From a virus, in the IMG/VR virus record IMGVR_UViG_3300006182_000001: DNA of 7,363 nt. One strand, given 5' to 3'. The notes beneath the pieces were generated by a model. That model was given only the letters and a program-made list of their open reading frames with translations, did not search any database and was not told where the DNA came from. Of this stretch, positions 3,603 to 3,983 are shown piece by piece. Each line of letters starts with the position of its first letter. The first letter of the stretch is position 1. A program made the position numbers and the translations under genes.

Positions 3603-3743
3603 ATGGATCTCGATTTCGCCGCCATGATCGCCGCTGTATCCGCAACCGGAGCCGTCGCCGCCATCGTTTCGATGGGTGTCGTCAAGCTGTCCCCCAACTT
3701 CGCCCGCTGGGCGGTTAACAAGGTCGCCGGTTTCTTCCGTTAA
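3603..3743 (+). CDS. Major coat protein candidate, 46 aa, leaderless (Pf3-like class): MDLDFAAMIAAVSATGAVAAIVSMGVVKLSPNFARWAVNKVAGFFR
   Basis: The protein has an acidic N-terminus (D2, D4), a hydrophobic core, and a C-terminal part with four basic residues (K28, R35, K40, R46), as in inovirus major coat proteins. An RBS-like AGAGGA lies at 3587-3592. A strong terminator follows immediately, as after gVIII in Ff phages. It is below the ORF-track cutoff. Confidence 0.7.
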   Translation: MDLDFAAMIAAVSATGAVAAIVSMGVVKLSPNFARWAVNKVAGFFR

Positions 3744-3768
3744 TCGGCGCTTTCCCTTCGGGGACAAC

Positions 3769-3795
3769 AAGGCCCCTCACGGGGCCTTTTTGTTT
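3769..3795 (+). terminator. Rho-independent terminator after the coat gene
   Basis: AAGGCCCC (3769-3776), loop TCAC, GGGGCCTT (3781-3788), running into TTTTTGTTT. A small CCC-TTCG-GGG hairpin at 3754-3763 precedes it. Confidence 0.8.
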
Positions 3796-3806
3796 GGAGC
3801 ACGTAC

Positions 3807-3983
3807 ATGGACCTTGATTTTTCAACAATGGTTGAGTCGCTTACATATGCGTCCTTAGTTACCGCAATGGTTTCTTTTGGCGTTGTTCAGTTGTTTCCGA
3901 CTTTCACCATGTGGGCAGTTGATAAGGTTGCTGGATTCTTCGGTTACGACCCTTACGACCGTGACAACAAGCACGAAGACTAA
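3807..3983 (+). CDS. Diverged coat-protein paralog, 58 aa, with an acidic C-terminal extension: MDLDFSTMVESLTYASLVTAMVSFGVVQLFPTFTMWAVDKVAGFFGYDPYDRDNKHED
   Basis: GGAG at 3796-3799 lies 7 nt upstream of the ATG. By hand alignment, 25 of 46 positions are identical to the upstream coat protein, including MDLDF, SxGVV, WAV and KVAGFF. GC is about 45%, against about 60% for the upstream copy (hand counts 79/177 vs 85/141). Confidence 0.6.
   Translation: MDLDFSTMVESLTYASLVTAMVSFGVVQLFPTFTMWAVDKVAGFFGYDPYDRDNKHED

Follow-up and report, generated by a model that had tools for sequence, protein, structure and literature searches.

A conserved, charge-reversed paralogue of the major coat protein encoded behind the coat gene terminator of an inovirus

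In inoviruses the basic C-terminus of the coat protein faces the DNA, so a coat-like protein in which this segment has become acidic poses the question of what such a protein is for. The question is raised by positions 3,603 to 3,983 of a viral DNA of 7,363 nucleotides (IMG/VR virus record IMGVR_UViG_3300006182_000001; the whole stretch is referred to as the window), where two adjoining genes, designated c1 and c2, encode coat-type proteins that both begin with MDLDF. The window carries an exact terminal duplication of 120 nucleotides (1-120 is the same as 7244-7363 of its 7363 bases), which indicates a circular genome of 7243 nucleotides. It is a complete circular inovirus genome, and the list of open reading frames (ORFs) with their PHROG matches gave an inovirus-type gene order across it. 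The analysis reported here indicates that c2 is a conserved, translated, accessory coat paralogue. The elements of the locus are as follows.

3603-3743, plus strand: c1, leaderless major coat protein of 46 amino acids (PF25631, 53.5 bits; PHROG 2186, 'virion structural protein')
3769-3795, plus strand: predicted intrinsic terminator (terminator scan and fold)
3796-3799, plus strand: GGAG ribosome-binding site of c2, 7 nucleotides upstream of the ATG, read from the sequence
3807-3983, plus strand: c2, accessory coat paralogue of 58 amino acids (PF25631, 40.7 bits; PHROG 29356, function unknown)

An earlier note on this DNA had described the two genes as tandem coat paralogues, and the description was borne out. 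BLASTP found 25 identical residues in 45 aligned (E 2e-18), and both proteins matched PF25631 (Inovirus_capsid; gathering threshold, 27 bits) over model positions 1-41 of 41, a similarity far above chance, by which c1 and c2 are judged to be paralogues. The c1 sequence runs from MDLDF to NKVAGFFR and that of c2 from MDLDF to DKVAGFFGYDPYDRDNKHED. A signal peptide is absent from both, and an in-frame TAA at 3579-3581, upstream of c1, rules out a leader on that protein; the coats of Pseudomonas phages 97-1 and WX_Y and of RSM1 do have one. The AlphaFold2 model of c2 consisted of a single helix at residues 5-44 (predicted local distance difference test score, pLDDT, 80) followed by a coil tail. 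With its acidic N-terminus (D2, D4 and E10), c2 therefore has the one long helix, acidic N-terminus and hydrophobic centre expected of a coat protein. It also keeps the positions that are invariant over c1 and c2 (G25, F33, W36, K40, A42 and F45) and those that are nearly so (P31, A37, V41, G43 and F44). Its acidic N-terminal end, hydrophobic helix and invariant coat C-helix (P31, F33, W36, K40 and VAGFF) are all retained. No solved structure was found for a coat of the PF25631 type, and no NCBIfam family.

The difference between the two proteins lies in the charge of the C-terminal half. The basic residues of c1 are K28, R35, K40 and R46, and residues 28-46 have a net charge of +4. The equivalent positions of c2 are Q28, M35, K40 and G46, as had been read earlier, with D39 in addition, and residues 28-58 have a net charge of -3. 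Consequently, only K40 remains of the roughly four positive charges of a basic DNA-lining segment. The charge-reversed C-terminus ends in a tail, YDPYDRDNKHED, beyond G46, and the tail GYDPYDRDNKHED has five acidic and two basic residues. The acidic extension that the earlier note had counted as 13 residues is present and acidic, but its length past position 46 is 12. In sum, three of the four DNA-facing basic residues are replaced, N39 is changed to D, and an acidic, non-helical tail with a fixed G-x-D-P-Y-D-R has been added.

These changes are not peculiar to the window. A search of 5.8 billion proteins gave 12 clusters of short-tailed c2, the window's own included, and all 12 variants keep MWAVDKVAGFFG.DPYDR. 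Residues M35, W36-G43, F45, G46 and D48-R52 are invariant among them, the preceding helix is variable, and the loss of basic residues, N39D and the acidic tail are fixed in 12/12. Over the C-terminal 19 codons the proportions of synonymous and nonsynonymous differences (pS and pN) were 0.63 and 0.035, giving a ratio of nonsynonymous to synonymous change (dN/dS) of about 0.03 (55 pairwise comparisons; synonymous sites saturated), which indicates that the tail is translated and strongly selected. The N-terminal and transmembrane 30 codons had a dN/dS of 0.25, and the matching parts of c1 gave 0.02 (C-terminal) and 0.23 (N-terminal and transmembrane). The tail is unchanged even in L018, a relative whose Zot assembly protein is only 66% identical to that of the window. 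An exact look-up of the window c2 sequence returned no record. Recent gene conversion between the copies was considered and rejected, since their DNA is 59% identical and 15 of the 25 identical residues have different codons; the sole change shared by c1 and c2 within a genome is F44M, found in both copies of L018.

The strong terminator that had been placed between the copies is also well founded, as a prediction. It consists of AAGGCCCC-TCAC-GGGGCCTT followed by TTTGTTT, that is, the G+C-rich hairpin and immediate U run of a rho-independent terminator, with an 8-bp stem (6 G-C pairs) and a 4-nucleotide loop at 3769-3788 (fold -20.8 kcal/mol, z -3.4). Every c2-carrying relative of this clade has it, as do those without c2 that were inspected. 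A search of 3000-4400 turned up no promoter-like site. At the position of the c2 ribosome-binding site, 6 of 11 intergenic sequences have GGAG or GAGG, and L033, L004, L031, L032 and L035 have AGGT.

The two sides of the terminator differ in composition. The reported G+C contrast between the copies was reproduced (0.60 for c1 vs 0.45 for c2), and along the window G+C falls from 0.59 to 0.50 exactly at c2. The G+C content of third codon positions (GC3) is 0.74 in c1, 0.49 in c2 and 0.50 in the g3p gene that follows. Only 10 of the 25 identical residues share a codon, with 19 codons ending in G or C in c1 and 11 in c2. When the six morphogenesis genes from g7-like to g1p were ranked in the window and five relatives, c1 had the highest GC3 throughout (0.69-0.79), with 0.47-0.62 for c2 and 0.47-0.51 for g3p, and the direction is the same in phage phiSMA7 (0.82 for the coat vs 0.67 for its ORF89, described below). 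The contrast is a stable property of these genomes and no trace of recent import; it reflects either a highly expressed coat next to genes of low expression or a long-standing difference between modules. Thus, c2 has neither the position before the strong terminator nor the strongest codon bias that would be expected of a coat gene as the most highly expressed one.

A basic-tailed c1 lies directly upstream of the c2-type gene in 19/19 loci with enough upstream DNA, 11 of the window's clade and 8 of Xanthomonadales type, and in 11/11 of the clade contigs c1 and the terminator directly precede c2. In none of the 19 loci is c2 the sole coat gene; relatives in which a c2-type protein is the only functional coat, the case that the earlier note had named as refuting its view, were searched for and not found. 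When relatives were checked for copy number by homology, some had c1 and c2 and others a single coat. A single, leader-bearing coat without c2 is found in many near relatives, namely the 97-1/WX_Y group, L017, L019/L021, L022-L028 and RSM1, and the Xanthomonadales-type L044-L046 have c1 alone. Consequently, c2 is not present in every clade member, as a coat would be. A role as helper for a leaderless coat was rejected, because L018 combines a leader-bearing c1 with c2 and L044-L046 have a leaderless c1 and no c2.

The relatives also show how c2 moves. Up to the terminator, L018 and L019 share 98.2% identity; past it, the part encoding g3p, g6p and Zot is only 78.8% identical, and L018 has c2 and its trailing hairpin (about 230 bp), which are missing from L019. 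This break identifies the coat terminator as a module joint and c2 as part of the downstream module. The window is 75-100% identical (mostly >90%) to L033 and L007 up to 3798, 53-60% over 3799-3917 and 82-85% over 3918-3977, which encodes invariant residues; over 3979-4090 the identity is back to 96-100% with L033 and only 77% with L007. At least for the window and L033, then, the c2 gene is exchanged in its entirety as an allelic cassette. No co-variation was found between the c2 allele type and c1, the g7-like protein, g3p, g6p or Zot, and L029 and L033 have identical c1 proteins and c2 proteins that are only 60% identical. The relatives with a c1-terminator-c2-g3p block (L004, L007, L009, L029, L031 and L032) have three families of single-stranded DNA-binding protein (PF17878, PF17426 and PF02303) and differing replication modules; these genomes are mosaic and the morphogenesis block is the stable unit. 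Of the earlier suggestion that c2 is a donor lineage's coat brought in with a recombined cassette, the recombination survives, in that the terminator is a joint and c2 moves with the g3p-g6p-Zot module. The recent donor coat does not: c2 belongs to an old, distinct paralogue family, c1 is present in all 19 loci, and the codon contrast, stable over six genomes, led to the dismissal of recent import.

The charge reversal extends beyond the short-tailed clade. In Stenotrophomonas phage phiSMA7 (L001) a leaderless, basic-tailed protein of 44 amino acids (MDFGDILTG...NKVATFFR, 2774-2908; PF25631, 68.7 bits) is likely to be the true major coat; its gene is unannotated in RefSeq, where four other ORFs are labelled 'putative capsid protein'. 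Downstream of it and upstream of g3p is ORF89 (YP_008130370; PHROG 29356; 'hypothetical protein; putative capsid protein'), which resembles c2 in its leaderless PF25631 helix (73.6 bits), in an acidic extension that starts from FF, in the loss of K28 and in a D at the position of c1's N39. It differs from c2 in its length of 89 amino acids, in a 45-residue extension with Cys motifs and in the retention of R35, and the two are only 42% identical. Also unlike the window, phiSMA7 has ORF45 between the copies and no canonical terminator. ORF45 itself is acidic and zinc-ribbon-like; homology of the window's cysteine-rich 62-residue ORF to ORF45 or to the Cys motifs of the long relatives was considered and was not significant (E 0.012, single comparison). 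The cluster of ORF89 has 87 members, and each named one that is listed carries the label 'hypothetical' or 'uncharacterized'.

A profile search of 1.8 billion representatives gave more leaderless proteins of 78-109 amino acids with a coat-like N-terminus, whose extensions are mostly acidic and in many cases carry CxxC...CxxC; the zinc-ribbon Pfam matches in these long tails were all sub-threshold. In L037-L043, prophages in assemblies labelled Stenotrophomonas, Lysobacter, Kitasatospora and Nocardiopsis (two assemblies for the latter two) and in a Hyphomicrobiales metagenome-assembled genome, the long-tailed protein again follows a leaderless basic c1. The acidic C-terminal extension is thus common to a leaderless subfamily that includes phiSMA7 ORF89, P0022-P0042 and L037-L043. 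With its leaderless PF25631 helix, loss of K28, one of D, E or Q at the N39 position, acidic extension right after FF and place between the coat gene and g3p, c2 is assigned on sequence grounds to this distinct, conserved and functionally uncharacterised charge-reversed subfamily of a known family, PF25631; its best PHROG match is 29356 (2.7e-08), the entry under which PHROGs files this group, with no function assigned. Literature searches returned nothing relevant on inoviruses with a second coat gene or with coat paralogues.

Taken together, 1) the charge loss and acidic tail fixed in 12 variants at a dN/dS of 0.03, 2) their recurrence in phiSMA7 ORF89 and Xanthomonadales prophages, 3) the place behind the terminator and 4) the g3p-like codons support the view, already put forward in the earlier note, that c2 is unlikely to be a conventional DNA-lining subunit. 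We tentatively favour, as a possibility well short of established, a minor subunit of the filament end or a terminator of coat polymerisation over a second body coat. The place behind the terminator, the g3p-like codons and the linkage to g3p, g6p and Zot suggest few copies and membership of the trailing-end or assembly module, and little c2 would be made, by transcription reading through the coat terminator, along with g3p, g6p and g1p. It would insert with the N-terminus out and the C-terminus in, as the coat does; this topology is suggested by the positive charges of c2, all of which are C-terminal to the helix, and by the probable zinc ribbons at that place in the long relatives, which would fold in the cytoplasm. 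The retained C-helix would let c2 enter the assembly site and lattice of c1. Its positions are held at a dN/dS of 0.03 and would not be needed by a mere membrane anchor, which suggests that the C-helix still meets the partner of c1, in the simplest reading neighbouring coat subunits or the assembly machine. Since the lumen-facing end of c2 is acidic, the protein would be kept out of any part of the filament that contains DNA and could be accommodated only at a DNA-free end, most likely the trailing end that is closed by g3p and g6p. There the c2 tails would fill the basic lumen that the last layers of c1 leave behind, or neutralise it, and so mark the stop of coat polymerisation. The more specific proposal, that c2 and its long-tailed relatives are chain terminators that sense the DNA end, with the acidic tail standing in for DNA in the basic lumen, is rather unlikely as it stands; c2 could then join only behind the departing genome, where it would close the coat lattice and make way for g3p and g6p. 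A preprint reports that other filamentous phages of the integrative type lack a recognisable gVII and gIX (10.1101/2023.12.30.573655).

Several observations weigh against a place for c2 at the filament end. The acidic, Cys-bearing domains of the long relatives, at 45-60 residues, would be bulky inside a filament tip, and the copies in phiSMA7 are not separated by a canonical terminator. The mid-helix of c2 is unconstrained, and its N-terminal and transmembrane part varies with no co-variation with c1, the g7-like protein, g6p or Zot, which is unexpected for a tightly packed lattice subunit. Moreover, a morphogenesis module of this type can do without c2, which is absent from L019, L017, 97-1/WX_Y, L022-L028 and L044-L046, and WX_Y, which lacks it, was deposited as a phage genome.

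Some of these observations also count in favour of a protein that never enters the virion. As an inner-membrane assembly factor or regulator, which is possible but somewhat unlikely, c2 would reach the assembly site by its coat-like helix and bind a basic partner with its acidic cytoplasmic tail, tuning initiation, DNA hand-over or the rate of extrusion; the cytoplasmic domain of Zot/g1p, the basic tails of c1 and the complex of single-stranded DNA and protein (DNA mimicry) are candidate partners. Such a factor would agree with the conserved C-helix and the specific tail motif at a dN/dS of 0.03, with the probable cytoplasmic zinc ribbon of the long relatives, with a gene that is accessory and not essential, with a transmembrane part that co-varies with no structural protein and with a low-expression module shared with g1p. 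However, the tail is invariant while the family of the single-stranded DNA-binding protein switches between PF17878, PF17426 and PF02303, which makes a specific contact between c2 and g5p unlikely, and expression behind the terminator would be too low for stoichiometric action on c1. The small Pf4 protein PfsE acts on host PilC, and c2 might likewise target a host membrane machine, or be a coat decoy, poisoning filamentous phages or satellites that compete or superinfect as they assemble or uncoat. Such a role in conflict or exclusion would explain why c2 is present or absent between near-identical backbones and why the whole gene moves as a cassette whose allelic lineages are deep (DNA 53-55% identical within flanks of 93-100%), a pattern that is shared with the centre of g3p and typical of conflict genes. 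In addition, two of ten inovirus hypothetical proteins tested by Roux et al. (2019, PMC6813254) strongly limited infection of Pseudomonas by other phages. It is nevertheless quite unlikely, given that c2 is located in the structural operon behind a terminator and not in a position expressed in lysogeny, that it would poison the phage's own nearly identical c1, that its variable part has the dN/dS of c1 (0.25) with no sign of positive selection, and that no PADLOC-type or other annotation points that way.

A second body coat, forming a mosaic with c1 along the whole filament and altering its surface or the ratio of DNA to protein, would account for the full-length coat homology, the retained packing residues and the occurrence of F44M in both L018 copies. 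It is considered highly improbable: the C-terminal half is -3 in c2 vs +4 in c1, the tail, a 50-residue domain in some relatives, would have to share the lumen with the DNA, position and codon profile are those of minor proteins, and the mid-helix of c2 is not conserved in the way that of c1 is. There is, finally, the prospect that c2 is an inert leftover, either a donor coat gene or a decaying duplicate from recombination at the terminator. Although the drop in G+C at c2 and the role of the terminator as a recombination joint would suit it, the reading frame is intact in 12 diverged variants, the tail has a dN/dS of 0.03, the architecture is repeated in a distant clade, a c2-type protein is the sole coat in no lineage, and all six genomes measured show the GC3 contrast. 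The selection analysis effectively refutes this explanation.

The other features of the window are given below.

1127-2494: replication protein
2835-3119: single-stranded DNA-binding protein
3134-3322, plus strand: cysteine-rich ORF of 62 amino acids (CDCC...C...CPEC), PHROG 9584, unknown function
3322-3600, plus strand: g7-like membrane protein of 92 amino acids (PHROG 969 match, 1.2e-14)
3990-4006, plus strand: hairpin GCGCCTC-TCT-GAGGCGC without a U run (fold -13.6 kcal/mol, z -1.7)
4010-4014, plus strand: GAGGG ribosome-binding site of the next genes, directly after the 3990-4006 hairpin
4019-4096, plus strand: hydrophobic ORF of 25 amino acids (MIWIVFAAFFGLACGSIVCYAFYQS) in another frame, overlapping the start of g3p
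4024-5514, plus strand: g3p-like minor coat or receptor-binding protein (PHROG 4544; the 97-1 homologue is annotated CoaA)
5524-5871, plus strand: g6p-like minor coat protein (PHROG 974 and 306, 'minor head protein Ace-like')
5885-7045, plus strand: g1p or Zot-like assembly ATPase (PHROG 197, 1.8e-56)

The Zot protein is 59% identical to that of the nearest cultured relatives, the Pseudomonas aeruginosa phages 97-1 and WX_Y, which belong to a group of small Pf-like prophages that was described recently (PMC10675462). Upstream of c1, the end of the cysteine-rich ORF overlaps the start of the g7-like gene (TGATG), and the TGA of the latter ends at 3600, with the c1 ATG at 3603, 2 nucleotides later. 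The g7-like protein is 97-98% identical among five of the six relatives compared and 76-78% identical to that of L004; in Pseudomonas phage 97-1 the homologous protein carries the annotation 'tail virion protein gp7-like'. Its C-terminus, ...VGSVAGFF followed by the acidic tail NPINSIEEL, has the layout of c2 (VAGFF, acidic tail). A VAGFF-like motif and an acidic tail ending in EEL or QEL are found in the g7-like proteins of this clade even where c2 is missing, and those of phiSMA7 and L046 are without this layout. VAGFF as a common docking signal was considered and set aside; within the Zot transmembrane segment only the window and L007 have the motif, probably by chance.

Downstream of c2, the hairpin at 3990-4006 is conserved in 12 relatives, whose stems differ by paired changes (GCGCCTC/GAGGCGC vs GCGCCC/GGGCGC). 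L017, a genome without c2, has this hairpin too, which may be an element of mRNA stability, processing or translation control. Between c2 and this conserved hairpin, L029 has an extra insertion of about 80 nucleotides (3089-3170) with a long perfect hairpin, and the 125-nucleotide stretch that contains it folds at -44.6 kcal/mol. The 25-residue ORF at 4019-4096 is better conserved than the overlapping signal peptide of g3p in 17 relatives with and without c2, and probably encodes a real small membrane protein, perhaps a tip protein of pVII/pIX size or a PfsE-like peptide; it had no PHROG or NCBIfam match. The centre of g3p (about 4391-4788) is hypervariable in a sliding identity profile, with 13-66% DNA identity and flanks of mostly 70-100%, and an imperfect 27-nucleotide tandem at 5119-5172 encodes an acidic Pro/Glu-rich linker (EDPVEPEQEEKPPEEEQEE). 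At 828-861, a non-coding segment upstream of a repressor-like gene, 34 nucleotides are identical to Pseudomonas phage 36-2 (OR621019), whose DNA is in other respects unrelated to the window; the segment holds the hairpin GGGGGTG-CTGTAA-CACCCCC and may be an origin, packaging or integration site. An Rfam scan of the window gave 0 hits and a tRNA scan 0.

Several known systems share some of the properties of the c1-c2 pair. CoaB of 97-1 and WX_Y and ORF8 of Ralstonia phage RSM1 belong to the same family and have the same helix and WA(V/L)NKVA(G/A)FF motif. They are, however, single-copy proteins with a cleavable signal peptide and a basic C-terminus, whereas c2 is leaderless, has an acidic C-terminus and is the product of an extra gene. 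The major coat of Pf3 is a leaderless, YidC-dependent protein of 44 amino acids, oriented N-out/C-in, with a basic tail and a single gene. It resembles c1 and c2 in layout, being leaderless with a short acidic N-tail and positive charges only past the helix. In Ff phages, pVII and pIX, and the N-terminal helix of pVI, are small helical end proteins that pack like pVIII and are present in five copies; pVII and pIX are about 32-33 amino acids long, leaderless and of low abundance, and their C-terminus contacts the packaging-signal DNA. A coat-like helix that closes a filament end is what is proposed for c2. Their genes, however, are upstream of gVIII and they are not recognisable paralogues of pVIII, whereas c2 is a clear paralogue with an acidic tail, encoded downstream of the coat gene; its 58 amino acids, gene position and acidic C-terminus are not those of a pVII/pIX-type protein. 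Two copies of gene VIII and mosaic virions are characteristic of the 'type 88' phage-display vectors, which resemble the window in having two coat gene copies but are artificial, and both of their copies keep the basic C-terminus.

The c2-type family is conserved in Stenotrophomonas maltophilia prophages (the 87-member cluster, on hundreds of contigs) and is also found in uncultured relatives of Pseudomonas filamentous phages; the labels checked in the family read only 'hypothetical' or 'putative capsid'. An end or assembly component is one role for which the family is a concrete candidate open to test; a factor in conflict between phages is the alternative. As a natural second gene VIII-like scaffold with a free C-terminal extension, c2 is also relevant to phage display. 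If c2 is indeed a chain terminator, it would represent a missing end component of integrative filamentous phages and, at the same time, a mechanism by which the end of the DNA is recognised.

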